Source of the DNA: Psammoneis japonica
Taxonomy: Eukaryota
DNA: 64,000 bases
Assembly: GCA_008632985.1 (NCBI GenBank)
Contig: QPGO01000162.1
Span: 62,001 to 126,000, forward strand
Direction of reading: 5' to 3'
Positions 11,256 to 64,000 of this stretch are shown here, piece after piece. Numbering within the stretch: the stretch's first letter is position 1; each line of letters opens with the position of its first letter. The translations under genes were made by a program, and so were the position numbers. The notes under the pieces are model-generated. The model was not told where the DNA came from. It saw only the letters and a program-made list of their open reading frames with translations, and made no database searches.

Positions 11256-11856
11256 TTCAAGAGCTGTTGTTGGGGTGGCTGTAAATTTGATCTTGTTGTG
11301 TTGTGGCCCATGTCACCTTGTGTTCCCAACAGCAGCAGAGACTTGAATTTCTGAACTCCAGATTGAGAACAAGGGGTCCCACAGCAACTCCAACCAACCC
11401 AACAACTGCACCAGCAGAGGGCACTGGCAGCATCTGATAGACCCAGAACAAGCCTTCAAGAACTGTTGTTGGGCTTTGCCAGGTTGATCTTGTGGCGTTG
11501 TGTCATGCTGTCCCCAACAGCAGCACACTTGACTTGGCCAAATCCAAAGTGCAAGGATCCCATCATGGTGCTAACCAAAATCTGACAACTGCCAGGATCA
11601 GAGGGTGTTGGCAGTTTTTGATGAGCCTCAGGTGAGATTTTAAGAGCTGTTGCTGGGCATTGCAAGGTTGATCTTGTGGCATTGTGTCCCCAGATCATGT
11701 TGTCCCCAACAGCAGCATGCTTGACTTGGCCAAATCCAAGGTGCAAGGATCCCATCATGGTGCCAACCAAAATCTGACAAGAGCTGCCAGCAGAGGGCAT
11801 TGGTGGTTGTTGGTCAACCCCAGACAGCACTTTAAGAGCTGTGGCTGGGCAATGCA
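11256..11856. repeat. Degenerate tandem repeat, ~185-200-bp unit, ~3.2 copies
   Basis: AAGAGCTGTTG..GGG...GTTGATCTTGT...CCCAACAGCAGCA recurs at ~11259, 11458, 11642 and 11834. Confidence 0.8.
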
Positions 11857-36600: not shown

Positions 36601-36764
36601 CAGAGGCTAAAAGGTGAGCACAAGACCCTCAACTCAGAGCTGTGAATGCAAATTTGCCATGTTGTCAACAATCATCAGTGTGTCTTGCACTGCAACATTG
36701 TCTGTCCTGCAAAAACTGCTTCGAACCCTGGTGCACCAACACACTCCTTTCCATGAGCCATCAA

Positions 36765-40747: not shown

Positions 40748-40912
40748 ACTCAAGACAGTCCTCAAGGGTTGTGCCAACTTTTGTCACCACAAAACAGCAA
40801 TTTGCAACTCAAGACAGTCCCCAAGAGTTGCACCCACTTCTGTCACCACAAAACAGTGATTTACAACTCAAGAAAGTCCCCAAGAGTTGTGCCAACTTTT
40901 GTCACTGCAAAA
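40748..40912. repeat. 59-bp tandem repeat, ~2.8 copies
   Basis: ACTCAAGA(C/A)AGTCC starts at 40748, 40807 and 40866. Confidence 0.9.
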
Positions 40913-43900
40913 TGGTGCTCATCATCGGTGTCTTTGTTGTGTGAATGAGTCAACGCAACAAGAGCTTGTCACCAATCTGTGGCTGCTCCAAGCAAGTGTC
41001 AATCATGATTTTTTACCATGAGCCCACACCCTCCATCTTAAACACCTTGCAGTCTACAAAATGACCACATGGAGAATCTCCAGCACATGACAAGTCACAC
41101 CATCATTGCAGAGAAGCCAGAGCACCACACTTGACATTGTCATCCACCAACCCACCAAACAACAGCATGTTTGACTCTTTGGCTTAAACAAATTGAACTC
41201 CACCATTCTTTGGTGGCAAAGCACCATGGGCTGCACAATGTCTTTGTTGTTGTCAGAAAGAGTCAATTCTGAATCCAACAAAATCTCCATTTCTTTTGCC
41301 ATCAGCATTTCTTTGGATGAATGCAAGAGAGACAGATCCATCCAAGGATCTTGTTCCAATCCTTGAAAGCTTCCAATTCAGTCTTGTGATTGATTGGCAC
41401 ATGTGCTTCAATCCAACTTGGACATGGACTGCTGCAAGTCTGCAGCGTTGACACATCCCCCCACAGATGGCCCTCCTTGCATTGGATGTGGCAACCAAGT
41501 CACAGACTCTTCAACCATTGCTGGCAGGTGCGTGCAGAGCCCACACATGCAAAACGCAAGCCATCAGTGTGTGCTGCAGCATTTGATGCATTCCATCCAA
41601 CACACCACACTCCAGAGGCAAGCTCACATCTGCCAAAAATGGCTTCAGCAAAATGCCGCTGTGATGCATGGCTGCTTTGGCAATCTGTCTTCTCTTTGCT
41701 TTTTTTTGATGATGCATTTCTGCATTCTGAAGATGAAATCAACCTTTTGTTGAAGTCAGAATGCTCCCTTTCCTGAATCTTTTAGAAGCCAGATTCATGA
41801 CAAGCTCAAAGCAAGCCATGACACATGCTGGATTGTCTCTGCCCCCAAAGCAAAGGCATCTGTGCTGTGCTTCTTGCACATGCTCCACTCCCCCCCTGTC
41901 TTTCTCAGAGGAACCCCACAAAAAACCAGCTTGATGTCCCACTTGAGAATCAAACACAAAAATGCCACAGACTCACAAAACTTCTGTGCTGAAGGAGCAA
42001 ATTCCCAGTGCAGAATTGCTCACGGTGCCTTGCGGTGCCGAACATTTGAACACATGCCGGGTTTGCAGGCTTTGGAGTTTTTTTTGTGTCTCATCCTCCA
42101 AGGAGCTGCTTCAGCCAGTGAGCAGCCCTTTGATTCCCATTGTGAGCAATGGTGCCTGCCTGTGTGACAGTGTGTTGCATGGCATGAAAAAAACCATGGG
42201 CTGAATGATGCTGTTGCTCTGATCTCTGATGATGGCACAGCAAAAAAAATTGAGATGAAACTCAGCCCAAATTCTGCTTGACACACAGTCTGTCTGTTGA
42301 ACTTAAAATGATGAAGAAAGGTCAATTGTCAGCACATCTAACACTGCAACATTGTCTGTCTGTCCTGCAAAAACTGCCTCCAACCCCAATGTTCTAACAG
42401 TGCCAAAGCAATCACTGTGGTGAGTTGATTCCAAGCAAAGTTGGCAGAGGACAGAAGGCAGGGTGGCAAAGCAAGGGGGTGGGTTGAAGCTTGGGTTGGG
42501 AGCAGAAAGCAAGAAAGGAAGAGCTGAAGAGGAAGTGGTGGAAAAAGAAACCAAGACCACCCAAGTGGCCATTTGTCAGTGAAAGAAGAGAGCACCCACC
42601 ATCATCAAGGGACTGGATGACATGGGAGCCATTGGCAACAGAGGCAGAGGGGCCAAGAAACTTTGATCTCATGCTCAAGTGGTGTGCCTCTGCCAACACT
42701 GGAGCACCAGAGAGGGCAGGCAGAGACCAGGAGGAGGGCAAGCAGGAGCTTTTGGTGCAGTGACATCAAAGGCAATGCAAAAACCAAAGGAGGGGGCAGA
42801 GAGGGAAGCAGGGGGGGGCAATGCTGACACCAGCAGGATGGCAAAAGGGGGAGTGGTTCAGCAGCAGATTTGTGGATTCAAGAAGGTGGACATCGTGGGG
42901 CAAATGGCGCAGCTTGGCAACCCCCCCCCCCCCCCCCCAGGAGAGTTGTGTGTGTGGTGACCAAGATGGCATCACAAGCACTGCTGGAAAGTTCAGCCTT
43001 GTGACTGTGTTGGCAAGCAAAGGCATGATCAACACAGGCATCAAGGGTGACATGGCCACAGGGGCACAGAGCACCAATGAGCAGGTGCGGAGGAAGGGTG
43101 GGGAGGCAGAGCTTGTGCTGAGCAGCGGCAGCACATGCGTTGGAGGCAAGAAGGTGGGGGATGACAGAGAAGCTTCAAGAAAGAAAGTGGAGTGGGATGC
43201 TGGCAAGAGGAGAGAGGCAGGAGCAGCTTGGACATCAGAAGGTGTGTCAGCAAGCGTGGAGGTGGCAATGCACTGCAGATGGGCATGGCAGAGGCAGTGT
43301 GCCAAGCCAGGAATTGCTTCTCGATTTAGAAAAGAGCAGCCAGAGAAGAGAAGCAGGTGAAGAATTGGAGGCAAGAGCAGCTGCCAAGCAACAAAAGAGG
43401 GTGTGCAAGTGAAGACAAGAGCAAGGGTTGTTCCAGGAAGAAAGAGAATGCCAAGAACAGCACGGGAGATCAGCGGAGGCACCAGACGGCAGCTGAACTC
43501 AGCGCGCAGCTCAAAAAGGAAGGAGCAGAGCAAAGCTGCAAGGAAGAAAGGGATGGCAGTGGTGGCAGGATCTCTGAGGCCAATTCTGCCAGGAGAAAGG
43601 CAATGGTGAGGGAGCAGGCAGGGAGGGGGTCAACATGAGTGGTGGTGTGGCAAAGGAGCAGGAGGGGAGAGAGCAGTGGCAAGAAAGTGCAGAGGAAGGG
43701 GGGTAGTCTGCTGTGTGGTGGTGGCATGGTGAAGGAAGCAGTGGATGAAAGCAACAAGGAAGTCTGTAAAGGAGGATCCAAAGGAAGGGGTTGGGTGGGT
43801 TGTCAGGATCGAATTTGCTGCAGCAGAAGTTAGCACCAAGGAGCAGCAGAGTGCTTGAAAAGTTGGGCCTTTGTCTGCTTTTCGTGCAGGTGGGCAAGGA

Positions 43901-44333
43901 GCTTGTCCACTTCAGAGGAGGATGTGGTGGAGAGAAAGGAGTTGGCAAAGGCACAAGAGCCTGAGGTCAGGCCAAGGAAGCAAACACCAGAGAGTTTTCG
44001 TTGCTTCGAATGATGTTCAAAACGCGACTTTCGAGGTCTGAGGTCCAGAAGATAAAAACCGCCGGAGGTCTAACACTTGTTTGAGAAAATCAGCTACAAG
44101 CAGAAATGTGATAGTGGGGCCACCTAGTAGAGCAATTTTGACTTGTGCCGTCGGGCACTTTCAATGTCGAGCAGCAGATATAATTCGCCACGTGAAATTG
44201 GTAAGTTTTAGGAAAATGGTGCTACGCTCAACAATGCTGTAGCTTCCCACAGACCGCCGGGAATGGCAGCTTCCTTTCTCTACTAGCTAGAGCATTGATT
44301 TGACCCGTGGATTCACAATGACTTGCTACCGAG

Positions 44334-46076
44334 TTAAAACAAGCTGTCGGCATGCTCCATCAAAAACTCTCGTAGTCTGGCCAATGCTCGTCCACGATGA
44401 CTAATGGCGTTCTTTTCATCCTTGGTCATTTCTGCGTACGTCTTCTTGTTGCCTTTTGCATCAGCTGCGCTCTCATTGGGTTCAAAGATGGGATCCCATC
44501 CAAAGTCGAGTGAACCACGTGGTCGGACAATGGAGCCTTGGGTTCGTCCCTCAAAGACGTGAATGTTGGTCCCGTCGATGCACAGAGCCATGACGGTTTG
44601 AGCGTATGCTGTTTTATCCTCAAAGCCCACCAGCATGTCATTGAGTCCGTCATGACCGCATTTTTCAAGAAACCATTTAATGTAGATACCGGGCATTCCA
44701 TTCAAGGCGTGAAAACAGAGGGACGTATCTTCAATCAGCACGGCACTCCCAACCTTTTGAAATGCCAATTGGCATTTAGCCTTGGCAACCTCTATAGGAT
44801 CGTGTCCTTGTAGTTCAGGCAAATCAATCTTTTGATTGACAAGATGAAATGGCAATTTGTTGCTACCGTGTGATAGTAGCTTTTGAACTTCTTGTAGCTT
44901 CTTGACATTACCAGTAACAAAGGTAATGGTGTGACTTGGTCTACGCGACGTGGTATCAACAGTGTTGAAAGAGGAGACTACTACTTTGAGCGTGTCGGGT
45001 AACTCTTGTGCGGTAGGATAGGAGGATTGTGCTCCATGTTTTCGTACCGACATGGACGCAACGCCACAAGCCTTGGATGCCGCGTCTGGTAGTGACAGTC
45101 CAGCAGACAAGTAGGTTGCCAAGGATCCGCAAAAGGCGTCCCCGGCACCAACGGTATCCACAACCGGAGTGTCCCGGCACGGCAAATCTGCTGGAGCATC
45201 AACATAAGTTGTTGTGGTTGTACTGGGTGGTGTTGGTGCTGCGTCGGTATCGTTAGAGTTGGTGGTAGCATCACTGTCGGTTTTGGATACAATCATGGCT
45301 CCTCGGGCTCCCAAGGTGACAACGACTGCTTTCTGAATGCCCCGATCCAAGAGTGATTTAGACATGGCTTCTTCATTAGCCCCATCATTATGATCCCCAT
45401 ACAATATCTTCAATTCCGTTTCGTTTGGAACAAGAATATCAACAAGCGGATACAGCTCGCGCTGTAATGTTTGGAGTAGCTTTTCGTCTTGTGGTGCCGG
45501 TGCTGGATTCAAAATGGTAATGGCATTTAGTTGCTTGCCAACTCTGAGTGATTCCAGTGCTGTTTCATAAAGAATTTCCAATTGAACAAGAACGACACGC
45601 GGTTTCAATAGTGGTAGTTTTGATTGCACGTCGTGAGGAGAAAGAGCGTGATTTGCCCCGGGAATCACAATAATCATATTGTCTCCACTTGATTTATCCA
45701 CAACAATCGGTGCCACTCCAGTTGTATAAAGTTCTCTTGACAGTAATGTGGTATCATTATCGTGTTGCGGTGGTGACATGATTGCGTCTTGTCCGTCGTG
45801 GTTTACTCGAGCCATGTCAAAATTGTCTAGAATCGCTCGTCCAAAGCCATCGTTTCCGACTCTGCAAATCATGCTGGTCGGAGAAATGTTCAAATTGGCA
45901 GCCGCAATCGCTTGGTTGGCTCCCTTGCCTCCACAGGATGTTTCGAATCCTTGTCCCAATACTGTTTGTCCCATTATTACCGGTAATGTCGACGTGTAGG
46001 CTACTAAATCCTGATTGGCCGAGCCCACCACGACGACTCCATGCTGCTTCTTCACGTTGTCGTCCGTGGCGGTCAT
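44334..46076 (-). CDS. Ribokinase (PfkB) fused to inosine triphosphate pyrophosphatase (Ham1/ITPA); an upstream in-frame extension is possible
   Basis: Single intronless ORF with GGKGANQA, PNETE and VDTVGAGDAF, then FVTGNVKK, EDTSL, PGIYIKWF, FGWDPIF and SHRGRA. Confidence 0.92.
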   Translation of the reverse strand: MTATDDNVKKQHGVVVVGSANQDLVAYTSTLPVIMGQTVLGQGFETSCGGKGANQAIAAANLNISPTSMICRVGNDGFGRAILDNFDMARVNHDGQDAIMSPPQHDNDTTLLSRELYTTGVAPIVVDKSSGDNMIIVIPGANHALSPHDVQSKLPLLKPRVVLVQLEILYETALESLRVGKQLNAITILNPAPAPQDEKLLQTLQRELYPLVDILVPNETELKILYGDHNDGANEEAMSKSLLDRGIQKAVVVTLGARGAMIVSKTDSDATTNSNDTDAAPTPPSTTTTTYVDAPADLPCRDTPVVDTVGAGDAFCGSLATYLSAGLSLPDAASKACGVASMSVRKHGAQSSYPTAQELPDTLKVVVSSFNTVDTTSRRPSHTITFVTGNVKKLQEVQKLLSHGSNKLPFHLVNQKIDLPELQGHDPIEVAKAKCQLAFQKVGSAVLIEDTSLCFHALNGMPGIYIKWFLEKCGHDGLNDMLVGFEDKTAYAQTVMALCIDGTNIHVFEGRTQGSIVRPRGSLDFGWDPIFEPNESAADAKGNKKTYAEMTKDEKNAISHRGRALARLREFLMEHADSLF

Positions 46077-46682
46077 GGCGTTTGGTTGAAACAGGAAAAT
46101 TCGACAACGTTTTTGGAGAAAAGGGGAGAGTAAAAAAGTGCTTGAAACAATCGTGTGAAGGGATAGAATAAGGAAGCAGAACCACTCGAGCAATAACATG
46201 AATGGGCGGGTGACGGGTGACGGGTGACGATATGATGGGTTGATGGGTGATGGGTTGGATGAGCGTTCCACACATGTTCAAAATGTTGTTTTTGATTCTT
46301 TTTATGATGATGTGTCTGTATGATAGTAGATCTTTCGTTTTGTCTGTGTGGCTGTCTCGAAAGGTGTGTGTTCTCTTTGGATACTTCGACGTCATCACGG
46401 CTTAAGGTCAGAATCTTTGTGTTGGCGCATCATCTCGGATTGACCAATCAGAATTGTTCCTTTGTCGCATTGGATTCCGATGCGATCCTGATCGGAAGAA
46501 ACAACCTGCTGCTTGTGATGTTTGATGTTGTTCCATGTTGATGCTTTATGCCGGAAGACACATCATAACACAACAAAACAAGAACAAAACAACAACAACA
46601 ACAACAACATCACAGCTGTCAAAACATCTGCAGCGTAACGTAATGCAATAATATACTAAAAAGACAAAAGACGACAACAACA

Positions 46683-49546: not shown

Positions 49547-51371
49547 CTAGTCCTTGTCCAATATGTCCATGTGCTCCTTGGAGAAGACCCCAAACTTCAC
49601 AAGTCCATAGCGAAGAGGAGCCAACATGGCAATCACAACAGGGAACAGCACCCCAAAACGACTTTCCTTGACATACAGCATGGCACAGAGACACGCAATT
49701 TGGATCAGCGTATACGACTTTGTGACATTCTTGGGAACAGAATCAGTCCACCGTTGCTTTGGTTTGATCGCTGACTCCTTAAACATGTCAACAATACGTT
49801 CCCACATTTCGATACCAGGAAGAGCGGACGTTCCTAGAAACATAAAGAGCCCCATAAGGGCCGGAAGTGGAAGATGTGAAAGCAGCTCGCGGGGCTTGGC
49901 AAAGAGAACACAACACCCAATCAATGAATGAATGGCGATACCCGTCACGCGTTGCTCGATAGTCCCATTGGTGCTTCCGTCTGGTTCGTACTTTGCAAGA
50001 GCGCGAACGTGTGAGATACTACGGACCGTGGCCGCCACTAGCCATGGGAGACCCACCACAGAAGTAGCTGCGGTCAATGCTGCAATCACAAATAGATCCA
50101 AGTTCATTCCGTCGAGAACATTTCCCTTCTCTCTTCCCTTTTCCATCTTGTAATCTGGATTGTTGACGACACGGACCGTGATGTTTTGATCCAAAAACAA
50201 CAATACGGTTGCCATTATGGCAGGCAAAATAGCTCCCCATCTCGCCCAAACAGGTAGTTCCATTAGCGGAACCAACCAAGGTCGTCCGGATGTGGTTGCA
50301 AAGGTAGATGGCATGGCCAGTGATGGAAGACCAGCGACCGCAGCTCCTTGAGACAAAAGAGAGTATCTAGCAATAAGCGCCCCCGTAACGACCCCAATGG
50401 TTGGTCCAAAGTTGGAAACATTATTACGAATCTTCTTGTTGAAAAAGACAGTCTGGCGGAGTCCTCGCAGAGTACTGGAAACCATGTATGTGACAGCAGC
50501 CACGACCAAGGTAAGCAAGCCCTTGGTAAAGGTAGACGTTTTGGAGATAAAGGCCATTCGTACATCGGACATGGCCTCAATAAGAAATATAGTGCTAATG
50601 AGGACGGAAAAGATCTCGTCTGTAAACCTCGTCAAGTATTTGACTAGATTTGACGCACTGGTTAAAGATCCCGCAAGCAAGATGCCTGCCGTCCAAAGCC
50701 CTGTCCAAGTGTAGAGTGGGAGGAAAGGAAGTGACATGGATTCTGCTACCTGTGACAAACATGCCACAAAGGCCAGAACTGGACCGGTAGACCCGATAAT
50801 GGTTAGTGGCTGTGCAGACGTCATGGCGTAAATCAAACCACATGCTGCCGTGGACGACATCATCTCAATTGTCCCCATGGCACCATCGGTAGCGGTGGCA
50901 AAGAGTGAACCAAAGCCAACTGCGGGAGCCAAGCATGCAAAGAATAGAAATAGCGTAGCTGCGAGGCACTGAGAAAGCAAGTAACGAAGAACAGAAAATA
51001 TTGTAAGAAAAATGAAGCACGTGCCCTGTGCAGCACATTCGATAACCAACAACAGCAGCACCATATCCCTGCAATACCTGATTGTTCAGACCGTCGGTAA
51101 TATCTGATTTGTAGAAAGGAATCCGTTGCTTATAATCTCTCTTGATTCCGACGCCCAAGCCTTCAAAGAGCTTATCCGCCTCGGGAACAACATCCTCAGA
51201 TGTGCTACTGGACACGAGCGGCGAAAGGCGTCGTCTGTGGCTTGGGACTACGGCTACGCGGTACGGAGAGGTAAACGCATGAATCGACCATGATTGTATC
51301 AAGAGAACTGAACAAGCCAAGAGAGGGGCAAGAGTACGTGCACGACGGTACGATGTGTTCGTCATCGCCAT
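49547..51371 (-). CDS. SLC4: SLC4-family bicarbonate transporter with bipartite leader; intron 50969-51077
   Basis: FYKSDITDGLNNQ|CLAATLFLFFACLAPAVGFG, AQPLTIIGSTGP, TRFTDEIF, LFLDQNIT, AATVRSISHV and EQRVTG. Leader ends IHA-F. Confidence 0.92.
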
Positions 51372-51522: not shown

Positions 51523-52980
51523 TCTCCTTTTATCATGCCAGGCATTTCTACAGAATTATCATCCACTGGATTTCCGCTACGCGATTTTTCTACGTGGCTT
51601 GGTACAAGTGGGTTGAGCGGACAGCTGGCACCGCACAATCAACCGTTACGATAAGAAAACAGCCGTTACGTAACGGATGTCTCTTCCATAAGTGCAACAT
51701 TTTTTCGTTGCGAGGTCGTTTATCAAAAATCACTTGACACATTTCTCCTCACAAAAAGTTAACGAAATTTGGTTCTCATCACAACCGTTCATGAAAATTC
51801 ACACAAAGTGTCTAGATGATGTAGACGATTACACATGTAAAGCAATTCTTCTTGGTCTTCGTTGTCAGAATCACTGTCAGCCGAAGAGTTGTGAAGCTTT
51901 GATTTGAGGTCATCGAGATCACGCCTTTTCTGAACGCAAATAGAGTCGAGACATTCTTTTGTAACGTTCCGCTCTTTAAGCTCCTTCTTCTTTGCTTCAA
52001 TGCTCTTCCCCAACAAACCGGCGTTTGGACAAACCAGCCGAATCAAGATCTTCAGCTCATCTCCCTTCAACGTCTCGCACTCACCATGCTGAGGCGCACT
52101 GGAGCGAAAAGTGCATCAAACTCGTCGAGTGTCATGGCACATGTGCTTGCATGTCACCAGTGTGAATGACGGTTGGATGTGCAGCCGCCCTTTTGTGCAC
52201 ATGTGACAGGTTGTGAGCATCGACTCGCTTGCCTCTGAGGTGCAGCCCAGAGTCTCCTTTTGTCATGCCAGGCATTTCTACAGAATTGTCATCCACTGGA
52301 TTTCCGCTGCGCGATTTTTCTACGTGGCTTGGTGCAAGTGGGTTGAGCGGACAGCTGGCACCGCACAATCAACCGTTGCGACAAGAAAACAGCCGTCACG
52401 TGACGGATGTGTCTTCCACAAGTGCAACATTTTTTCGTTGCGAGGTCGTTTGTCAAAAATCACTTGACACATTTCTCCTCACAAAAAGTCAACGAAATTT
52501 GGTTCTCATCACAACCGTTCATGAAAGTTCGCACAAAGTGTCTGGATGATGTGGACGATTGTACATGCAAAGCAACTCTTCTTGGTCTTCGTTGTCAGAA
52601 TCACTGTCAGCCGAAGAGTTGTGAAGCTTTGATTTGAGGTCATCAAGATCGCGCCTTTTCTGAACGCAAATAGAGTCGAGACACTCTTTTGCAACGTTCC
52701 CCTCTTTAAGCTCCTTCTTCTTTGCTTCAATGCTCTTCCCCAACAAACCGGCGTTTGGACAAACCAGCCAAATCAAGATCTTCAGCTCATCTCCCTTCAA
52801 CATCTCGCACTCACCGCACTGAGGCGCACTGGAGCGAAGTGCATCAAACTCATCGAGTGTCATGGTGTGTGCACTTGCATGTCACCAGTGTGAACAACGG
52901 TTGGATGTGCAGTCGCCCTTTTGTGTGCACATGACAGGTTGTGAGCATCGATTCGCTTGCCTCTGAGGTGCAGCCCAGAG
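51523..52980. repeat. Tandem duplication of a ~730-bp 3' segment of the pogo-like element (51523-52252, 52253-52980); a partial third copy lies at ~53410-53485
   Basis: Direct alignment of the copies; duplicated peptides in the ORF track (KGDELKILI.LVCPNAGLLGKS). Confidence 0.95.
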
Positions 52981-53429
52981 CCCAGAGAACAGTGGTCGCA
53001 GGTTCGACACCTCGAATTCATGCAGAAAAGTTCAGGGCAACGCAGGGGGCAAATGCCTGTAAAACAGCCAAACTAACATGCAGAAAATGTCTGCGCAAGA
53101 GGAGCGCACATGCAAAACATGCCTTCCAACCAGGGTGCGAGAAGCCAACAGGGTATGAGTCACCTGAAGAGTGGCCTTCACAACAACACAAACAACAAAA
53201 CACACACAACTAAAGTGCAAACACAATGTGGAAGCATTCCGACAGGCATGGGAGACACCTCTCCGGCGATTGCACTGACAGAGTTGCAACACACAATGAA
53301 AACATACAAACATGCACACCAGAAACTGACAACCAGAAAACATCTGCCTCTGAATGTACAAACCAATGCACTCCGTGAACATCCGAACATTAGTTTGAAG
53401 GGGGGTGTTGTGGCATGTGCACTTGCATG

Positions 53430-56400
53430 TCACCAGTGTGAACAACGGTTGGATGTGCAGTCGCCCTTTTGTGTGCACATGACATCGAGCGCTTTCGATT
53501 GCTTGGCGATGTCAGCCTTCAGTTTCGTTTGCTCTGCCTCGCCCACCTCGATCATCCTTGTCTTGGTGCGGCGCATGGCAACAATTGCATTCTCACCTCG
53601 TGCTGTCGTGACAATGGCTCCACGTCTCTTCTTTTTGGGCGGTTGCTCGGAAGCACCCGCTGCGCCGGCAACCGCATCCTTTCGCTTGAAACCGGCAAGC
53701 ACGCTCGACATCGTTGCATGCATTGCGACGCTGATGGCGTTCACACCACTGCTGTTCACCTCTGCTTCGAAGCCATCAATCATGGCGACATGTGGTTTCT
53801 CAATCATCTCTTTCAACTGCAAAAAATCCTGAAAAGAAAAGCTCTCACCAACTGTTTTCCCTTGTTGTTGTTGATGCCAGACTTCAAACATTTTGTCACG
53901 CTGTTCCGAAGCTTTCCGTTTTGCAGCCTCGATTGATGCTGTCTGCTCTCTCTGTCTCTGCTGCCTTTTGTGGAGATGCTCTCTTCTGGTTGCAGCAGGA
54001 TCTTTCAGAAATTTTTTGGGGTCGACGCGGCCGCTCTGGGTCACAATGCGCTCAGTCCCATCTTCCAGCACCAGCTTCCAATTCGGACTGGTTTGGAGCA
54101 TGACAACTCCATCAAAGGTTGCACCAGTGGGATCAAAAAATTGCACCTCAACAGCATCAATGAAAGGTCGCACCGAACGCAGCACCGTTGCAGTCCAATC
54201 TCTCGCGTGCTCCTCTTTCGTCTTTTCCGCCGCACAAGGCAGTGACGCCGCATCAGGCAAGCAATGTTGTGCAAGTTGCATGGCCAGCTCTTCTTGTTCA
54301 CTTGTTGGCTCTGGTTTCTCACTCTTGCACTCTGTGCCCTCTCTCCATTTTGCCAACATTGATTTTGCCACTGGCATCGCAACATCCAAGTCGTGAAGCA
54401 GCAGGTCGTCATCGTCGTCGTCGTCGCAGCCCTTGCAGAGAATGTTTCTTGATCTCTCAACAATGGCAACTCGTTTGTCAGGTGGGAGAGGCTCAATTTC
54501 CCACTCTTGTTTTTGTTGCTCTTGTGCTTGTTCCTCCTTTTCTCTTTGTGATTCCAGGGCGAGGTCGTGTGCGGTCCCCATTGTCTCTGGCACTTCCGTC
54601 CACGCCACGCAATCGGGGTTGATTGGCTCAAGTCCGGTTTCCTTCCAGGCACTTGTGCAGACATTGCTTCCTTTGGACAACAGCTCAGCCTTCTCGGCTT
54701 CAAGGTGAGCCTTCCAAGCAGCGAGAAAAACCCAGTTTGTCAACCGCACTCCTTTTGCAAGACCGCTCTCGTGCCTGGCCCTCTTTGCCTCTTCCTCGAT
54801 CTTGACATGCAGGCGTTTGTTGACACCTCGATCATTTGGTTGTGTCCAGATGGATGTGTGAGATGGCAGAAAAAAACAACAGATGTTGTGATCCCAGAAA
54901 TGCTTGAGAGCGGCGTGGCACCAATGCGAGGCATGTCCATCGAGCAGCAGCATCGTGGCGTTCCTCATTCGTTCCTCGTCTGTCGCGCAACTTGTTTTTC
55001 CTTGACCCTTGGGAAGGTTCTTGCAGTGATGAATGGCGAAGTCGAGCATTGCATCTTTTTCCATGCTTCCATTTGTGGTTGTCCGGACATCAAAGCCGCG
55101 CGGGTTGTCGCTGAACTTGGCGTTGGGGTTGGGATTTGCTGGGGTGAGGCCGTCAAGATGCATTTCACCAACAAGCAGTCTCGTCTTCTGGAGCATCAAT
55201 GCGGTTGGAATCATTGGTCTTCTTCTTGGATTTGGAGGCATGCACAAGGAACGGCAGCGGGGCACCTTCAATTTCTTGGCACGGAATTGCGTTGACGCCT
55301 GCGGAGGCGGACGGGGCACAAGGCAAGTGCGTTCAACAATTGTCCAGAGCAAGGCAGTGACAACAAATAAAGTGGCACCCCTTTGCTTGCCATCTGCTCT
55401 AGAAGTGACACACACAGCAAGATGATGCTCATCTTGCCGTCGCCCTCGGGAGTCCTCTGAAAAATGCACAACTTCTTCATGACCTCCTTGAAGACCAGCA
55501 CTTTCTTGCGGCGTTTTGCAGTGTCCATTGCAACTTCATCCATGTTGCATTTTCTAAAAGCCTCAAGCTTCTCAATGCAATCAACATCAATTTTACCTGT
55601 GGCATGGAGATGCTTCACAAAAGACTGCAACTTTGCAAAACATGCATCCCGAACCTCTTTCGTCCCCTGCTCAGCATGAATTGGGTCCAAACTTGAAGCT
55701 GAAGCTGGTTTTGCTGGCTTTGGATGGCGTTGGAGCATGGGGTGTAGACAGGTTCCAGTCCCAGGTGGGACTTTTTGTGACATTTGCCCCGCAGAATTCT
55801 GCGCGCGAGCTCTGCAGTTCGCACTCTGGTCAATGGATGTGTTTGTCTTCGACATGAAAAAAACGGCCAAGTTTGCAGCACATCTGTCCCTGTTGGTGCT
55901 CAAAGTTTTGGACAATGCGCCTGCCCTGCGCCATTCTTAAGACACTCGAGAATGGCACAGAAGAAAAAAACATTAAAAGTTGTTCAATGGACAGCCTGAC
56001 AAATGCACTGTAAAATCACACAAAATTTCGCCAAAATCACGTAGAAATGCACGTGCATGACATACGACGCGATTCAAAAAACTGTCGATGTCACAGTTCA
56101 GTGGTGCGAGGTCCCACCTAGACCTGGAACGCGTCTGCACAAAACAATCAGACACAGATGGTTTTTCACGCTCATCAATGTGCTCATCAGCCAAGTCATT
56201 CACAATGTCAAGAATGGTGTCCTTTGACACTCCACATCCCATCTGACCCAGCCAGCAGCAAACTTCAACAACATGCTGCTCTTCGTCGTCAGCAAGAGCT
56301 CCACTCCCCTTGTGCAAGGCAGTGATTGCCTCCTTTGCCTTCTTGTCTTTTGCTCCAAAATGGTTGCAAGTGGCTTCTTGTGCTTTCTCCACTGAAGCAC

Positions 56401-56700
56401 TTTCTTGATGAAGACGACGAAGTCCACTTTGTCCCCATGCCCGATTCAGGGTGTTGCAACGGGTGCTGTGCTCAGGGTGGACATTCTTGCAGTGATGGCT
56501 CAAAGAAACTCCATTGCCATTTGCATGGAAGTCCACAAGAATGTGAAACTTCAAAGACTTCTCCACACGTGGGCATTTCGTTCCCTTTGCTCTGCCTTTC
56601 GCCTTGGCTTTTTCCAAAGGTTTGAATGCATCCGCCGGTGAAGGAGCAGTGACAGCATCAACACACTGAGGATGAATGCACATGGCGGCAAACACAGATT
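53430..56700 (-). mobile_element. Decayed pogo/Fot1-like DD35D transposase (CENP-B HTH + DDE_1), frameshifted and interrupted by a MITE
   Basis: LADDEEQHVVEVCCWLGQMGCGVSKDTI (HTH), NMDE, and LLLDGHASH...LPSHTSIWTQPND with 35 residues between the last two Asp. Confidence 0.85.
55746..56136. mobile_element. ~390-bp MITE, copy A, inserted in the pogo-like transposase
   Basis: Imperfect TIRs AGACAGGTTCCAGTCCCAGGTGGGAC / GTCCCACCTAGACCTGGAACGCGTCT; homologous to copies B and C. Confidence 0.85.
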
Positions 56701-58615
56701 GCTGTTGTAAGACAAGTCTGCTTTATGTTGTGGGTGTTTTTGAAATTTATGTCGAGCTGATTGTTGCACACGGATCATCACAAAATTCAAACCTCATGTA
56801 AAATCACTGCTGGGATGTGCGTCGACAATGACAGAAAAAAATGGCGCGACAATGCATTGCGCACATGCTGCACATGGTCTCTTGTCATGTCGACTCTTGT
56901 GAATCGAATGGTGCATCAACAGCTCAACAGTGTTGACGATGGGTTTGGAACTAGAGCGCCATGGTCGACGAGACGGGATGACGGTTTTTGCATTTTTTTT
57001 TTCTCGGCGAGAAGTTGAGTGGAGGAGAGATGAGAGATGAGATGGAGGGAAAGATTTTTCTCTCATCTGGAACTCGATGGCAAACTTTACTGTGGCGATT
57101 TGTGCGCAAATGATTGCACACACTAACATGTCACAACATAAGTTGGTGGTGTTCTGATCAGAATTTCAGCACCAGAAAAAATGCGTGCAATTCCACATGA
57201 TCACTTCACACCAAATTGTCACTTCACAGATGGGAATCCCCTGTGGTTGAAGATTGGGTGAGCTTGGATTTTGACAAAATTGGCTTTTCATTGTTTTCTT
57301 TGGAGCCTGCAATTGTTTTTTTTGCGAGGTCCAATGTTTTTTTCAAAAAAGCATTAGATGGTTTTTCTGGAACTCAGACCTCGTGGACCCCTTTTGTTTT
57401 TTCGCGAGGTCCACAAGCAAAAAACCGGTCTGTCCTCTTCTTTTTGGTGTCTTTGTAAAAGTCGATTTTGTTTCCAAAATCGATGGGGTTTTCACTGTGC
57501 AATGCTTCTTGCGTCTTCTGCCATTGTCAATTGACATGTTCTCATGCCTGTGTTCACCAGAGTCACGGTTCTGAACGCCACAACTGGTGTCGCAAGAGGG
57601 GGCTTTTTTTGCTCCAAGAGGACAGACCGGTTGTCAGTGGAATTCTACGTGGAAATGTGCCGAGAAATTTGTGAAGTTTTTTTGCTTGCTTGTGGCCATC
57701 GTCTCTTGCAACGGCAGCATGGCAAGTCCACAACACACACTCGCATCGAATTACATGGGCCCACAAGCTGTGATTGATTGCTGTTTTGCTTTGTTGCTCG
57801 CACTGTGTGTGCAGGTGTTTGTCACTGGTCATCATTCATCATGACACATGGTGCAACTTCTTGTTGTCGTCGAAAACTCAACAAAACGCAGCGCGATGCA
57901 GTGTCAAAAAATGCAAAATGATGAAGATAATTGAGGGTGGGAAATCCCTTGTTTTCGGGGGCATTTTGGAAATTTCACTGGAAAAACGGATAAAATGAGA
58001 CAGCATTTTTTGCGAATGCGTGCGATTCATGGAAAAACGCTCAAACGGCTTGAGTGCAAATTCTGAGCTCACCGTGCAAATTCTGAGCTCACCGTGCAAA
58101 CAACACAACAACAGCTGAAATGCCGTTCGTTGAATGCAATGGAGGTGGGGAGGCCTCCAACTTTCTTCACAAGTTTGTCACCCATGTCAAATGCGATGCA
58201 CCCTGAAAAAAGTTGGAGGCTGCCCCGCCAAGTTTTCGAACGGCATTTCGGCCATTGTCGTGTTGTTTGCACGGTGAGCGCCGAACGCGTTGGGATGTTT
58301 TCTCCACAATTGCATCACAAATGATTAAAAGATTGGTTGTTTTTGATGCTTTTTACAAATGTGTGTCGAAAACACAAGGGGGTTCCCAGCCTTGATGAAC
58401 GAAAATCTCTGTAAAATTTCAGACGGTGCATTTTTTTTAGAAAATGGCAATGTGCCATTTTTGGCCCCCGATTGCGCTGTGATGCAACATTCTTTTGTCC
58501 CGCTGTTTTCACCATGATCTCTGTTGACATTCTAGCTGAAGTTTGCAGGTTGGGTTTGGATGGCAAACAATGGGAAGTTGCTCATGGAGTTGCTTTACAA
58601 AGTTTGCTCTTCCAA

Positions 58616-59020
58616 GAGGACAGACCGGTCGGAAGAGGACAGACCGGTCGGAAGAGGACAGACCGGTTTTTTGCTTGCAATGGTTTTTTTCAAAAAAGCA
58701 TTGGATGTTTTTTATGGAGCTCAGACCTCGTGGACCCCTTTTGTTTTTTCGTGAGGTTTTGTGTTTTTTCAAAAAAGCATTGGATGGTTTTTGTAGACCT
58801 CAGACCTCGTGGACCCCTTTTGTTTTTTCGCGAGGTCTGATGTTTTTTTCAAAAAAGCACGAGATGGTTTTTCTGGACCTCAGACCTCTTGGACCCCTTT
58901 TGTTTTTTTCGAGAGGTCTGATGTTTTTTTTCAAAAAAGCGTTGGATGTTTTTTCTGGACCTCAGACCTCGTGGACCCCTTTTGTTTTTTTGCGAGGTCC
59001 ACACAATGTTTTTTTCAAAA
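58616..59020. repeat. 19-bp repeat x3 (GAGGACAGACCGGTCGGAA) followed by ~78-bp hairpin-containing tandem repeat x4; related unit at 57330-57440
   Basis: Unit reads CAAAAAAGCATTGGATGGTTTTTCTGGACCTCAGACCTCGTGGACCCCTTTTGTTTTTTCGCGAGGTC. Confidence 0.88.
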
Positions 59021-59028
59021 AAACATTG

Positions 59029-59420
59029 GGGCGCGTTCCAGGTCTGGGTGGGACCTCACACTGCTGAACTGTGACATCGACAGTTTTTTGAATCACGTCG
59101 TATGTCGTGCACGTAGATTTCCACATGATTTTTTCGACATTTTGTGTCATTTTATGGCACACTTGTTGAGCGATCCGTCCAACAACTTTTGACATTTTTT
59201 GTTGCAGTGCGATTCTTCAATGTCTTAAGAATCACGCAGGGCAGGCGCATTTGCAAAAACGTCGGGTGGCAAGAGGCACAATTGCACCACAAACTTGGCC
59301 GTTTGTTTGATGTTGAAGACAAATGTGTCCGTCAATTAAATTCTTGTGCTGCAGAGCTTGCACACAGAATTCTGCGGGCCCAATGTCACACGGAGTCCCG
59401 CCCAGGGCTGGAACGCGTCT
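59029..59420. mobile_element. MITE copy B, inverted relative to A and C, inserted in the 78-bp repeat array
   Basis: Ends GCGCGTTCCAGGTCTGGGTGGGAC ... GTCCCGCCCAGGGCTGGAACGCGTC; the host repeat unit resumes at 59421. Confidence 0.85.
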
Positions 59421-59862
59421 TGGATGGTTTTTCTGGACCTCAGACCTCGCCATCCCCTGTCCACCACCTTTGTGCGTTGGGACCCAAGCCTCGTGACTCC
59501 TCCTCGTGAGCAACATCAGAGTGTTCTCGCCCACCCTCGAGGGCTCATCTTTTCTGGGTTTCTTAAACTGGGATGTCACCGTGCGTCACCGTGCAAATGT
59601 CTTGGTGCCACCTGACATCACCCGACCTGTGAGGAGCCATGCGAACCCTCAGAAAACACTCCCTCTTGCAGGTTCAGGGGTGAATCATAACCCGTTGCAC
59701 CTGCATGAGGGTTCATTCCCTCTGGCGCAAATTCTGCACATTTTTGATGCAGCAAAATGCTTTCAGGCAGAATGAGAACTCCACAACAAAAGAGCGAAAT
59801 GCGCAGCTGTCGCAACAACAAACACATCAACTGATCGTCACGACGAGCATCACAGTCAAGCC

Positions 59863-60915
59863 ATGGCATCCATGCAGCACATCATCATGTCTTCTGAACA
59901 CCCACAGCATCGTGAGTTTGCATGGGCATTGGAAGAGTTGAAGAAAGCTTCCAGATCTGGTGGTTCTGGCACAAATGATGGAGCAGGACAGTCGACCCCC
60001 GGTGCCAGCATTGTTTCTGCATCCGGGCCAGCCCCTTCTGCGACTTTGGATGGGGAAGAAGCAGCTCTTTTGGAAATCATGAATCTCTTGATTGATCTCA
60101 CAGAGGATGCAACAGTTGACTTGATCAATGAGGAGAAGGGAGTGACCAAAAAGCCAAAGCTTCCAAAGTTGCTGCAACCCGAGAACGAGAGCTTGTTTCA
60201 TGAATTGCTCTTTGTCATGCAAGCAAAGAAAGCACATCTGCACATCAAGCACATTTCGAAAGATGCGACCACCAAGTCAGTCTGGCAGCCAGTTCTAGAC
60301 GAGTTCTATGATGGACCTGATGGCCCTGCTTGCGGCTGTTTCAAGCCAACTGGTGAGTTTGTGCATCGCACTTTCCAACAAAAATGCTGGGGCATTGTGG
60401 ACACGTTGGCTGGGCACGCTTTAAACAAGGAAGAAGGGCATCACACCCCTTGTGAGATCTCTGCATTGGCCACGTGGAAGGAGCAGAAAGATTTGATGGA
60501 AAAGGACAAAGAATCCAGGTTGGAAGCAATGGCAAGGAAGGAGAAAGTGGCTGCTGCGAATGCTTCAAGCGAAGCCAAACTCAAACTCACACCTCCAAAA
60601 CCATTCAGTGAGAAGTGTCCAGTCCCAAGCATTGCTGTCACTCCCTCTGAGAGACCTGATGGAAAAGACCGTGTGCTGGAATTGGAAAAAACCCAAGAGA
60701 AGGCAGACGAAGTCTTGAGTGACATCAAGGCTTTCCTCCCATCCAGGGAGGAGATTGGAGAACTCAACAAGTGCAAGAAGAGGAAGCTTCAGTTGGACAC
60801 AATGGCGTCTGCAGCAACAATGATCTCGCAGGGCAGGGATGCAAGTCTCGACGTCTCAAGGTTTCAAGAGCATTGCAAGCAGCTGCAAGACGAGCACTTT
60901 AAAGATCAGGCCTGA
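59863..60915 (+). mobile_element. 350-aa TE-associated ORF, possibly the Myb/SANT-like companion gene of a PIF/Harbinger element
   Basis: Long ORF inside the TpA-depleted block with a single Tyr and a coiled-coil C-terminus, convergent with a Harbinger-like fragment. Confidence 0.4.
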
Positions 60916-60966
60916 AAAAGATCAGGCTGTGCTTGGCACAAATCAGGACGCATGTTTCATGTTGCC

Positions 60967-62000
60967 GAGTGCTTTCCAATGGCAGCATTTTTGTTTCCAT
61001 GCCTTGAGCAGATCAGAATTCTCTTTTGCACATCCAAACGCCGCCGCAAAATTGCACGCCAAAAATTCCCAGTGTGTTCTCATGAACTGCCGGCAGGCGT
61101 CACTCCAGAAGCAATGGGAGTTTTGCAACAACAAACAGTGTCAATGCCATCTGCAGAACGAGTGCTTTCCAATGGCAGTGTTTTTGTTTCTATGCCTTGA
61201 GCAGATCAGAATTCTCTTTCATGTGTCCAAACGACACCGCAGTTGCGCACCAAAAATTCCTGGTCCGTTTTCATGAACTGCCGGCAGGCATCACTCCAGA
61301 AGCAATGGGAGTTTTACAACAACAAACAGCGTTAATGACATCTGCAGAACGAGCACTTTCTAATGGCAGCATTTTTGTTTCCATGCCTTGAGCAGATCAG
61401 AATGGTCTTTTGCATGTCCAAACGACACCGCAATTGCGCGCCAAATTCCTGGTGCATTTTCATCAACTGGGCATCACTCCAGAATTGATGGGAGTTTTGC
61501 AACAATGAACAGCGTCAATGACATCTGTGGAACAAGTGCTTTTTAATGGCAGCATTTTTGTCTCCACACCTTGAGCAGATCAGAATGGTCTTTTGCATGT
61601 CCAAACGACACCGCAATTGCGCGCCAAGTCACTGGTGCGTTTTCATCAACTAACTGGGCATCACTCCAGAATCAATGGGAGCTTTGCAATGATGAACAGT
61701 GTCAATGACATCTGCAGAACGAGTGCTTTTTAATGGTGGCATTTTGGTTTCCACACCTTGAGCAGATCAGAATGGTCTTTTGTGTGTCCAAACAACACCG
61801 CAATTGCGCGCCAAATTGCTGGTGCATTTTCATGAACTGGGCGTCACTCCAGAAGCAATGGGAGTTTTGCAACAACAAACAGTGTGAATGCCATCTGCAG
61901 CATGAGTGCTTTCTAATGGTGGCATTTTTGTTTCCATGCCTTGAGCAGATCAGAATTCTCTTTTGCACATCCAAACGAACGCAGTTGCGCGCCAAGTTGC
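60967..62000. repeat. Tandem repeat, ~183-193-bp unit, ~5.5 copies
   Basis: Units start at ~60967, 61160, 61351, 61534, 61721 and 61904, each containing CCTTGAGCAGATCAGAAT. Confidence 0.93.
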
Positions 62001-62012
62001 TAGAGTGCGTTT

Positions 62013-62540
62013 TCAGGCAATGGAAGTGCCAGGAGATCCATGACACAAAGACACAAGAAGATGCATTCTGTGCCAAGCACATGGCACAAGAACCATGTCG
62101 GGCAGCTCAAACAAATCATGCAACACTTGCAGCTCCTCCACATTGAATCGAGTCGTCCATTCGGCACAGTTGTCAGAGTGATCATTGATTTGTCGGTGAT
62201 GTGTGGGAGAAAAGTCAATGAGACGATGCTCCTCCTCATGTGTCATGTCACCAACAGATGAATTTGCATCTGCCCAAATCTGAGCCACATTGTGACATGC
62301 AAAAATGCCACCCAATGCATGCGCAAGAGCAACGCCAAAGGGGTCGTCCGCATTGCTGACTTGCTCTGGATCCAACAAACACCCATTTTCCTGATTGCCA
62401 ACATCATTTGACAATCGACAGATGAACTGCAACATAACTGATGATAAATGGTCCAGAATTCTTTCCTCAGTGCAGATGCTCCTCGTGCCCAATGGCGCCA
62501 GACAGTTGCACAACAGTGTTGTTAATTTGACTGTTGCCAA
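62013..62540 (-). mobile_element. N-terminal fragment of a Harbinger/DDE_Tnp_4-like transposase
   Basis: TRFNVEELQVLHDLFELPD resembles the RF..L..L...L.LP motif. The catalytic region is absent. Confidence 0.45.
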
Positions 62541-62609
62541 TGTTGTGAGAAGAACTGGACAAGAATTGGCTGTTCTGAAAGCTCACAGAAAAGATGCTGA
62601 GAAACCATG

Positions 62610-64000
62610 TAGAAATTGACAGAAAGTGGAATTCGGAAGTCGTCTAGAAGACTCTGGAGATGCAGAGATCTTTCCAGAAAGTGTCATCTTTGACACACTT
62701 GACATCTCGTTGACACTCCTTGACATCCACGAATGAACACACAAATGAAGCATGGATGACCGTGACACTCGGCGCTCGCTTCCCCAATTGAGGCGTTGGA
62801 AAACAGGGTGAAGACGATGGACATTAATCCGCTCAGTGACACCGGGTGAGTGCTGGATGGCAACGGTTCCATTGGCATGAACATGGACAATGCGGAAGGG
62901 ACCATCTTTGGTGTTGAGTTTGCATTGGATGTCTTTGGTCATGGCAAAGACTTGATCGCTGATGTTGCAGTCACAAGTGAGACGTTTTGCATTCTCACGG
63001 AGATTGTTGCGCAAGACAATTCACTTGCAACAGGCATCAATCATTTTCCAACCAGCGAGACAAGCAGCAGAAATGACCATGTCTTGACCAAAAACGACTT
63101 GTCTGGGAGATGACATGAGGGCAGTGTGACAAGCACTGCGCAAGGCCCACACAGCAGATTGCAAAACGTTGTGGATCATGTCCTTGCCACAATCACGTGA
63201 CGGGAGATCCATTGCACGGAGAGAACTGGCAACAACTTGATGGATGCGCTCAACAAAAGCGCTGGCTTGAGGATTCTTGATCGTGGCAGGCTTCAGCTTG
63301 ACTCCACAACTGCAGAGAAGATCTGCAAACTCGGAAGTAAATTCTGGACCATTGTTGTGAACGACAAATTCTGGTCGCAGATGGCGACAGAACCATTCAC
63401 GATCGACAATGAATGAAATGTCGTCGGACGTTTTGGATGCATGAGATGCTCGACACGTTCCAGCCCTGGCCAGGTGGGACTCCGTGTGACATTGGGCCTG
63501 CAGAATTCCACGTGCGAGCTCCACAGTGCAAGAATTTAATTGATGTGTGTGTTTGTCTTAAACATCAAATAAACGGCCAAGTTTGTGGTGCAATTGTGCC
63601 TCTTGCCACTCGACGTTTTTGCAAAAGCACCTGCCCTGCGCAATTCTTAAGACATTGTAGAATCGCGCTGTGACAAAAAATGTCAAAAGTTGTTGGACGG
63701 ATCGCTCAATGAGTGCACCGTAAAATGACACAAAACTTCGCAAAAATCACGTGGAAATCTGTGTGCGCGAACATGCAACGCGATTCAAAAAACCATCGAT
63801 GTCACAGTTCAGCAGCACGAGGTCCCACCTGGACCTGGAACACGTCGCGAGTTCGATCCAGCGGGTGGCAATGTCAATCACAGAAACGGCCTTGATTTTG
63901 CAATCTACGCCATTTTTGTTGGTGCGCGTCCACGGACCGGAAAGATTGACTTGCACTGCTTGCCAAGGTTGGCAAATGGTGTCAGGAAGAGGCAACTTGC
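62610..64000 (-). mobile_element. Ty3/Gypsy retrotransposon relic: integrase, polypurine tract and start of the 3' LTR (TG at 62767); runs off the window end
   Basis: PWQAVQVNLSGPW, IDIATRWIEL, HNNGPEFTSEF, KNPQASAFVERIHQVV and GPFRIVHVHANGTV...ERINVHRLHP, followed by GGGGAAGCGAG and TGTCACGG. Confidence 0.88.
63451..63847. mobile_element. MITE copy C, inserted in the Gypsy integrase
   Basis: Ends CGACACGTTCCAG ... CTGGAACACGTCG. Removing it plus 2 bp restores WIELASHASKTSDD. Confidence 0.88.

Follow-up and report, generated by a model that had tools for sequence, protein, structure and literature searches.

Evidence for context-dependent conversion of TpA to TpG and CpA in transposon-derived blocks of the diatom Psammoneis japonica

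We analysed 64,000 nucleotides (nt) of the genome of the diatom Psammoneis japonica (NCBI GenBank assembly GCA_008632985.1, contig QPGO01000162.1, positions 62,001 to 126,000 of the forward strand), hereafter the window, in whose coordinates all positions are given. The analysis followed up a first-pass annotation of a tandem duplication at 51523-52980, whose two copies differ mainly at 5'-TA-3' steps that read TG or CA in one copy. The duplication proved to be the edge of a window-wide pattern, in which about 92% of the expected TA dinucleotides are gone from 30.6 kb of DNA in four blocks. The changes are confined to transposon blocks with sharp limits, affect both strands, follow a rule set by the base 3' of the adenine and proceed faster than CpG decay. 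An in-place mutational process acting on transposon-derived, presumably silenced DNA probably turns 5'-TA-3' into TG or CA. This signature has been described once before, in 2026 and in the chlorarachniophyte Bigelowiella natans; the diatom case, which is saturated and has a defined motif, is not categorically new.

Results

TA-depleted blocks in the window

Dinucleotide observed/expected (o/e) ratios were profiled in 64 one-kb intervals over the whole stretch. The TA ratio was bimodal, with 29 of 64 intervals between 0.00 and 0.13, 35 between 0.30 and 0.83, and none between these ranges. The 29 depleted intervals fall in four contiguous blocks (Table 1) and have TG+CA ratios of 1.29-1.97. Block limits were fixed to within tens of nucleotides by the positions of individual TAs; the right limit of block 4 lies beyond the window. 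The blocks contained 154 TAs, with o/e ratios of 0.08 for TA, 0.35 for CG, 1.66 for TG and 1.74 for CA, while the gene-bearing remainder (33.4 kb) contained 1389 TAs, with ratios of 0.59, 0.97, 1.18 and 1.13, respectively. Block DNA is complex sequence and not of low complexity. TG and CA counts differed by at most 13% in any of the four blocks, so a strand bias from transcription or replication is absent at block scale. We also applied the cut-offs of the Bigelowiella preprint considered below: all 29 depleted intervals passed the TpA cut-off (0.43), and all but four, with TG+CA of 1.29-1.51, passed the CpA+TpG cut-off (1.52).

Table 1. Features of the window (TA and CG ratios are observed/expected per kb)
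Feature	Position	Strand	Remarks
TA-depleted block 1	9030-14095		TA 0.06-0.11, CG 0.05-0.23
Inverted repeat in block 1	11857-12489 and 12764-13405		633 and 642 nt, 93% identical
TA-depleted block 2	19760-22535		TA 0.04, CG 0.06-0.10
TA-depleted block 3	33350-44050		TA 0.03-0.09, CG 0.04-0.21
zf-CCHC zinc knuckle frame (Pfam)	36768-37361	-	in block 3; gag-like, retroelement remnant
Host SLC4-type bicarbonate transporter	49547-51371	-	two exons; ATG at about 51371, exon 1 at 50868-51371
Tandem duplication, copy 1	51523-52252	n/a	730 nt
Tandem duplication, copy 2	52253-52980	n/a	728 nt; 5 TAs in all
TA-depleted block 4 ("young")	51980-64000 (window end)		TA 0.00-0.13, CG 0.39-0.89
Third, partial copy of the unit's distal part	53405-53484		80 nt; overlaps the 3' end of the transposase frame
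DDE_1 (pogo/Tigger-type) transposase domain, open frame (Pfam)	53433-55535	-	701 codons
Tandem array	60966-62015	+	5.6 units of about 183 nt (also 370)

The recognisable contents of the blocks are mobile elements. Among 143 block open frames compared with Pfam, two gave clear matches, DDE_1 and zf-CCHC, both of mobile-element type, and no recognisable host gene was found. The DNA of the DDE_1 frame held 2 TA and 111 CG, and BLASTP returned seven distant relatives only, at 27-39% identity. Blocks also carry dispersed repeats. In the remainder of the window, host families in Pfam were matched by 12 of 30 long open frames.

The tandem duplication

Copies 1 and 2 lie head-to-tail and were 93.56% identical across 730 aligned columns. 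The 47 differing columns comprised 45 substitutions and one 2-nt gap, and 43 of the 45 substitutions were transitions, with two transversions (from copy 1 to copy 2: A>G 17, T>C 12, G>A 8, C>T 6, C>G 1 and G>C 1). All 20 TAs of copy 1 lie inside its first 455 nt, with none in its last 275 nt. The first-pass annotation had counted by hand that 16 of about 20 of these TAs were TG or CA in copy 2, and the exact recount agreed: ten read TG, six read CA and four were kept as TA. A single site ran in the opposite direction (CA in copy 1, TA in copy 2), which makes a 16:1 split (binomial p = 2.7e-4). The 25 copy differences in the first 455 columns consisted of 17 at TA sites and eight others, where the annotation had put the other differences in the first 450 bp or so at about nine. 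Its statement that most CpGs were unchanged was also borne out, with 33 CpG steps conserved between the copies and seven differing.

In the distal 280 nt each copy holds one TA. This part carries nearly all of the seven CA/TG doublets that separate the copies, that is, steps that read CA in one copy and TG in the other; they include the examples from which reciprocal change had originally been described. TAs stay dense in copy 1 up to 51977, so the limit of block 4 cuts through this copy.

The third, partial copy was 95% identical to copy 2 and 84-86% identical to copy 1, and two CA/TG doublets were its only differences from copy 2. A count on the printed sequences showed that copy 2 and the 80-nt copy agree against copy 1 at five of seven variable steps. 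These shared steps indicate that conversion continued through successive duplications and that its states were inherited. The 80-nt piece (52129-52208, 52857-52936 and 53405-53484) is bounded by an imperfect inverted repeat, TGTCATG...CATGACA, and its third copy covers the last 18 codons and the stop of the transposase frame. Possibly the piece is a recombination or sub-terminal motif from which the duplication started. A search in purine/pyrimidine space for a terminal inverted repeat partner of the unit's left end returned nothing convincing (best 33/40).

A 114-amino-acid (aa) frame inside the 730-nt unit had no relatives among 1.84 billion protein representatives, and its Pfam match, to CTNNB1_binding, was below threshold (16.8 bits against a cut-off of 22.4); it therefore offers no polarity at the protein level. 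The spacer between copy 2 and the transposase frame (52981-53404, 424 nt) showed weaker depletion, with seven TAs (o/e 0.30), four of which stand in TAA-type contexts on our reading of the sequence. Its + strand is strongly CA-rich, with 62 CA and 29 TG.

Direction of the change

From the two copies alone, a change of TA to TG/CA is indistinguishable from a change of CA/TG to TA. The polarity proposed in the first-pass annotation, an A:T to G:C change at TpA on either strand and independently in each copy after duplication, was supported by mass balance, doublets, loss of tyrosine, outgroups and precedent. The converse, that copy 1 gained its TAs as in classical repeat-induced point mutation (RIP), had been named there as a refuting outcome and fails on five independent lines.

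For the mass balance, all blocks were compared with the gene compartment. Per kb, the blocks had lost 36.5 TA and 33.5 CG and gained 68.5 TG+CA; the values for the 52-64 kb block were -34.9, -14.1 and +50.9, respectively.

A CA/TG doublet needs two substitutions, and with a TA or CG ancestor these are one per copy. Based on the seven single losses among 40 CpGs, 0.18 discordant double CpG losses were predicted, compared with seven doublets seen (P = 1.2e-9). Saturated and independent conversion of about a dozen ancestral distal TAs would give about six doublets. In the 183-nt array, 12 columns contained a mix of TG and CA only; five still held TA and eight still held CG.

The transposase frame is open over its whole length (P about 3e-7 for a random frame in block 4) and encodes no tyrosine, compared with 1.2-3.4% tyrosine in seven homologues. 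The 58 block frames of at least 130 aa together encoded 0.08% tyrosine, 5.9% cysteine and 4.7% histidine, and the 41 frames outside the blocks 2.28%, 2.4% and 2.3%, respectively.

As outgroups, we used 55 metagenome loci that encode relatives of the transposase. TA o/e was 0.34-1.11 at all 55, none of them being near 0.1, and some were CpG-poor. Two of these loci had CpG o/e of 0.10 (L030) and 0.03 (L054) together with normal TA (0.61 and 0.73), so CpG decay occurs without TA loss in other organisms.

Context rule for surviving TAs

The TAs that survive in blocks are not a random sample of contexts (Table 2). TTAA was not depleted in blocks, and no ATAT was left there. We described survival in the ten NTAN classes with an additive model in which each of the two adenines contributes a hazard set by its 3' neighbour. 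The fitted hazards were 0.06 for A, 0.92 for G, 1.72 for C and 2.35 for T (r = 0.988), and old and young blocks fitted apart gave r = 0.97 each. How readily an adenine converts is governed by the base on its 3' side, in the order T > C > G, and TAA is immune. At duplication sites where only one of the two adenines stands before A, 9 of 11 had converted the other adenine (p = 0.033). Because TA is self-complementary, a rule stated for a target T, with the 5' base in the order A > G > C >> T, is equivalent.

Table 2. TA counts by context class
Class	Blocks	Outside
TTAA	37	43
CTAA	39	118
GTAA	22	167
CTAG	10	88
ATAA	18	222
CTAC	16	216
ATAG	6	152
ATAC	4	194
GTAC	2	106
ATAT	0	83

AA was not depleted, with an o/e of 1.23 in blocks and 1.15 outside. 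Error-prone synthesis of the DNA polymerase eta type, with A>G at both TA and AA (the WA motif), had been among the candidates first put forward; we rejected it on the intact AA and on the immunity of TAA.

CpG decay as a second process

CG o/e was 0.04-0.23 in three blocks and 0.39-0.89 in the 52-64 kb block, although TA was equally gone in all four. CpG survival ranged from 0.10 to 0.28 across ten NCGN classes, so that flanking bases were without effect. Copy 2 had lost 16 of 20 TAs and 4 of 37 CpGs (1 of 26 in the proximal part), which as a relative estimate makes per-site loss roughly 10-40 times faster for TA than for CpG. The change of CpG to TpG/CpA in blocks is ordinary 5-methylcytosine decay of silenced transposons, a slower, context-independent and separate process. 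Diatom transposons carry DNA methylation (PMC9998398).

At three block edges (13936-14095, 22245-22535 and 43999-44052) the TA-free zone includes 50-290 nt of normal CpG density, the longest case being the last 290 nt or so of block 2. The excess of the TA-free zone over the CpG-poor zone could reflect conversion that spread into the flanks or weaker methylation at element ends. All seven single CpG differences between copies 1 and 2 were CG against CA on the + strand (three one way and four the other), and none was CG against TG (two-sided sign test, about 0.016). This hints that CpG decay at the duplication was strand-biased, on the transposon sense strand.

Conversion follows position and not homology

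In its proximal 455 nt, copy 1 still holds 20 TAs although a partner of 93% identity adjoins them. Over its first 450 nt copy 1 had a TA o/e of 0.5 and a CG o/e of 1.27, like ordinary unique DNA. The spared segment lies 152-606 nt upstream of the SLC4 start codon. Since this segment was spared despite its neighbouring copy, conversion follows position in a transposon or silenced block and not homology. The change had been called repeat-targeted, and this was not supported in the sense of RIP, the proximal 455 nt of copy 1 being duplicated yet unconverted. Either copy 1 straddles the limit of a silenced domain, or its proximal part is host promoter DNA of which the block acquired a copy. With either origin, TA is ancestral and the target is a position rather than a repeat. 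The differences between adjacent copies and between array units show that the changes arose after local duplications, in place.

Discussion

Proposed mechanism

We propose that the adenine of the TA step undergoes an A:T to G:C transition on either strand, and that this is nearly complete in blocks. Once duplicated, the unit would have lost its TAs independently in copy 2 and in the distal part of copy 1, both of which lie inside the converted block. With independent loss, about half of the sites would end up as TG in one copy and CA in the other. The promoter-proximal part of copy 1, beside the active gene, would have remained outside the block and kept its TAs. The conversion may be enzymatic deamination of adenine in DNA, to inosine that is read as G, and silenced or foreign DNA may be singled out for it by marks in chromatin or by small RNAs. 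In that event conversion would act as a genome defence in which transposons are inactivated by missense changes: conversion of TA makes no stop codons, alters tyrosine and other TA-containing codons and leaves long frames.

It is possible, if somewhat short of probable, that the whole of this reflects a diatom enzyme, guided by chromatin, whose substrate is the adenine of 5'-TAB-3' (B = C, G or T) in chromosomal double-stranded DNA, which it deaminates. Such an enzyme would erase about nine in ten TpAs per transposon block, 10-40 times faster than methyl-CpG decay, would stop within tens of bases at active promoters and would kill by missense changes without stops. Taken together with Bigelowiella, such a "reverse RIP" would be an old defence of the stramenopile-alveolate-rhizarian (SAR) supergroup and a source of natural DNA adenine deaminases.

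Several points weigh against conversion of TA as we describe it. Two of the 11 informative sites and one TTAA were converted contrary to the context rule. The polarity at the 16 sites comes from indirect lines and not from a direct ancestor, and no further full copy of the 730-nt unit was present in the window or the searched collections. Use of the gene compartment as a proxy for the ancestral composition of transposons is an assumption. Tyrosine occurs in at least two homologues at 18 alignment columns, and the transposase has cysteine or histidine at 4 of these 18 (p = 0.03); the replacement of tyrosine by cysteine or histidine at conserved positions is thus weakly suggested, by homologues that are 24-34% identical. 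A 3' T is best and a 3' A immune, unlike in ADAT2/3 tRNA substrates or in ADAR neighbour preferences. The enzyme, the targeting signal and the defensive role are ones that we infer.

Alternative explanations

The target may instead be the thymine. Under this explanation the T in 5'-VTA-3' is modified in silenced DNA, for example to a base like 5-hydroxymethyluracil, and mispairs with G or is misrepaired, which gives T to C. TA is its own reverse complement, and the data therefore fit equally (5' base in the order A > G > C >> T), as does the equal frequency of TG and CA in every block; the sequence cannot tell this chemistry from adenine deamination. Dinoflagellates do have a thymine modification at TpA. 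However, oxidised thymine normally still pairs with A, and no such modification is reported for diatoms in the literature covered. We regard a thymine-centred process as unlikely.

An assembly or base-calling artefact, in which the DNA truly reads TA and a base modified at TpA leads the sequencer or polisher to report A as G or T as C, is a little more improbable still. Systematic transition miscalls at methylated motifs are known in nanopore consensus sequences. Strand-specific miscalls at the palindromic TA should, however, sometimes yield CG or leave TA, and none of the 20 TA sites of copy 1 read CG in copy 2, while CG is nearly absent in three blocks. The same context reads TG in one copy and CA in the other, states are shared in a tree-like manner among copies, and array units share TG/CA states together with other substitutions. 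The same signature also arose de novo in Illumina data of B. natans, according to the main text of the preprint (Mettrop et al., bioRxiv 10.64898/2026.01.13.699255, 2026).

The remaining three explanations are very improbable. In the first, C to T change at CpA/TpG of the classical RIP kind created the TAs of copy 1, and copy 2 is ancestral. The 16 sites are indeed symmetric when only two copies are viewed, and in Neurospora RIP favours the change of CpA to TpA. Diatoms also carry DNMT4 enzymes related to fungal RID, as described in PMC9998398. However, this process cannot make CA/TG doublets, of which there are seven between the copies and 12 columns in the array, and it leaves 30.6 kb at TA o/e 0.08 without tyrosine codons unexplained. 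The RIP indices were inverted, with TpA/ApT of 0.09 and (CpA+TpG)/(ApC+GpT) of 1.90 in blocks, against 0.66 and 1.22 outside. The TA-rich part of copy 1 resembles ordinary unique DNA and sits on a gene promoter.

Methyl-CpG decay alone, with the doublets as ancestral CpGs deaminated on opposite strands, has just as little to recommend it. Such decay does occur, as the CG ratios of three blocks show, and CATG against CGCA at columns 563-565 can be interpreted as two adjacent CpGs decayed. But it predicts almost no discordant double losses, cannot remove TA, and does not account for a 52-64 kb block at TA 0.00-0.13 in which CG is still 0.39-0.89; nor does its independence of context match TA loss. 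CpG decay is contradicted as the sole cause and stays as a co-occurring process.

The last of the three, that the blocks never had TA because they are foreign DNA of unusual composition or were under selection against UpA/TpA, is equally hard to credit. TpA is mildly under-represented in most genomes. Selection against UpA has been described for some RNAs (PMC3829696). Yet the pattern is common to unrelated elements (the DDE transposon, the gag remnant and arrays of 59, 79, 183 and 192 nt), relatives of the transposase elsewhere have normal TA, and a tyrosine-less transposase is not a selected state. In addition, one duplicated segment differs between its copies by position.

Two further candidates were tried and rejected. 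Editing of double-stranded RNA of the ADAR type followed by reverse transcription would edit one strand per event and reach retro-copied elements only; it was rejected because a DNA transposon, local arrays and adjacent DNA copies are changed, on both strands. GC-biased gene conversion was set aside as GC content barely differs between the compartments (48.7% and 47.1%) and only TA is affected.

Comparison with known systems

The closest precedent for conversion at TpA comes from mutation-accumulation lines of B. natans. The main text of the preprint (Mettrop et al., bioRxiv 10.64898/2026.01.13.699255) reports that 231 of 302 nuclear mutations fell in one giant-virus and one virophage insertion, and that A>G or T>C accounted for 230 of these 231, each at a TpA. 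The rate amounted to some 6e-7 per site and generation, the de novo rate in the region was raised about 1000-fold, and only some lines were affected. The same source describes 324 TpA-poor coding sequences enriched in DDE endonuclease and reverse-transcriptase domains and 124 clusters of TpA-poor, CpA+TpG-rich windows, and proposes an ADAT2-like protein as the candidate enzyme.

Judged by that text, the two systems share A>G/T>C change at TpA to TpG or CpA on either strand, restriction to foreign or mobile DNA with host genes spared, and long-term TpA depletion with CpA+TpG enrichment clustered in 1-kb windows. The hypermutated viral region of B. natans is also single-copy, so that there, as here, the process is not triggered by homology. 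They differ in host, which is a rhizarian there and a stramenopile here, and in target, as transposons and satellite-like arrays are hit here and viral insertions there. Depletion is near-saturated in P. japonica (o/e 0.08), whereas in B. natans the giant-virus region has a Rho of 0.45 and the virophage region is not depleted. A 3'-base rule is defined here, while the preprint's main text gives no trinucleotide context; CpG decay co-occurs here, while "CpG" appears 0 times in that text, which also makes no mention of diatoms. The first-pass annotation knew of no description in diatoms. Our full-text literature searches likewise found no diatom description of TpA hypermutation, but the process itself was already known from B. 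natans. In the passages covered, a mutation-accumulation study of Phaeodactylum tricornutum describes a GC>AT bias and reports no TpA hotspot (PMC6604790).

As in fungal RIP, transitions at one dinucleotide riddle transposon DNA on both strands and inactivate the elements, and the compartment limits are sharp, with possible short leakage into flanks. In contrast to RIP, in which C:G>T:A changes create TpA, the A:T>G:C changes here destroy it. No stop codons are made; TAG and most TA-containing codons are removed and long frames are left. Homology is also not sufficient here, as the sparing of proximal copy 1 shows. DNMT4 is present in many diatoms, with its function given as unknown (PMC9998398).

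Methyl-CpG decay affects the same blocks, yields the same TG/CA products and is likewise strand-symmetric at block scale. The TA process, however, hits TA and not CG, is faster and depends on context.

ADAR prefers a 3' G, and the order found here (T > C > G >> A) matches neither ADAR nor the anticodon contexts of ADAT2/3. With ADAR/ADAT enzymes and TadA editors the proposed change would share A to I read as G and a 5' U/T preference (as cited in bioRxiv 10.64898/2026.01.13.699255). The substrate of those enzymes is RNA, or single-stranded DNA once they have been evolved in the laboratory, whereas the change here is in chromosomal DNA and on both strands equally.

Implications

If real, these observations extend TpA-specific A:T>G:C hypermutation from one chlorarachniophyte to the diatoms, a major and partly tractable group, and would make it a main fate of diatom transposons rather than a curiosity of two viral insertions. 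The motif, with TAT and TAC fastest, TAG slower and TAA immune, together with the sharp limit at a promoter, provides tests for candidate enzymes and for the targeting mark. Adenine base editors had to be evolved from TadA, and to our knowledge no natural DNA adenine deaminase was known at the time; such an enzyme, if true, would matter beyond phycology.

There are practical consequences for annotation as well. Converted DNA yields long, tyrosine-free, Cys/His-rich spurious frames that gene finders will call. Homology searches fail for converted elements, as the 2 of 143 frames with a clear Pfam match illustrate. Transposon ages calculated from divergence are overestimated in converted DNA, and RIP indices read backwards.

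Additional features of the window

Pfam scans of 179 frames from the window, two of them entered twice in slightly differing versions, turned up no deaminase domain. Among block frames, weak Pfam matches below curated cut-offs were to ELAPOR1_C, FAKV_Clamp, GBP_PSP and NDUF_B7. A Diedel match at 33457-33699 stood at the cut-off (21.4 against 21.3 bits) and was taken as an effect of Cys-rich composition. A 379-aa frame in block 4 (59776-60912) had no relatives in the protein search. Frames of at least 130 aa numbered 58 in the 30.6 kb of blocks and 41 in the 33.4 kb of gene-dense DNA. Of the stop codons in converted DNA, TAG is largely gone, TAA is reduced and TGA is the main one left.

The host families matched outside the blocks were Mg-chelatase/VWA, Rad17, SBDS, KIX, SNF2 with a bromodomain, BTB, a PfkB-Ham1 fusion and AhpC-TSA_2. 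The SLC4 protein has its best named relatives in the diatoms Seminavis, Cyclotella and Thalassiosira (69-70% identity), and other relatives reach 74%. The PfkB-Ham1 gene (44337-46277, - strand) is a single 647-aa frame that joins a PfkB-family sugar/nucleoside kinase domain (residues 80-422) to a Ham1/ITPase domain (residues 451-638). ITPase clears inosine nucleotides from the pool, and the gene directly adjoins a converted block, which is probably a coincidence.

Two intervals inside blocks, 42001-44000 and 20001-22000, showed a strong purine skew on the + strand (GC skew 0.29 and 0.22, AT skew 0.26 and 0.13, respectively), which strand-symmetric TA conversion does not explain. The differences between the arms of the inverted repeat in block 1 included three CA/TG doublets, but also seven transversions and several indels, and its decay spectrum is more ordinary than that of the tandem duplication. 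Further arrays in the blocks had units of 79 nt (also 162; 58683-59029), 59 nt (40748-40912) and 192 nt (11442-11858), and the 79-nt unit recurs at 57313-57415.

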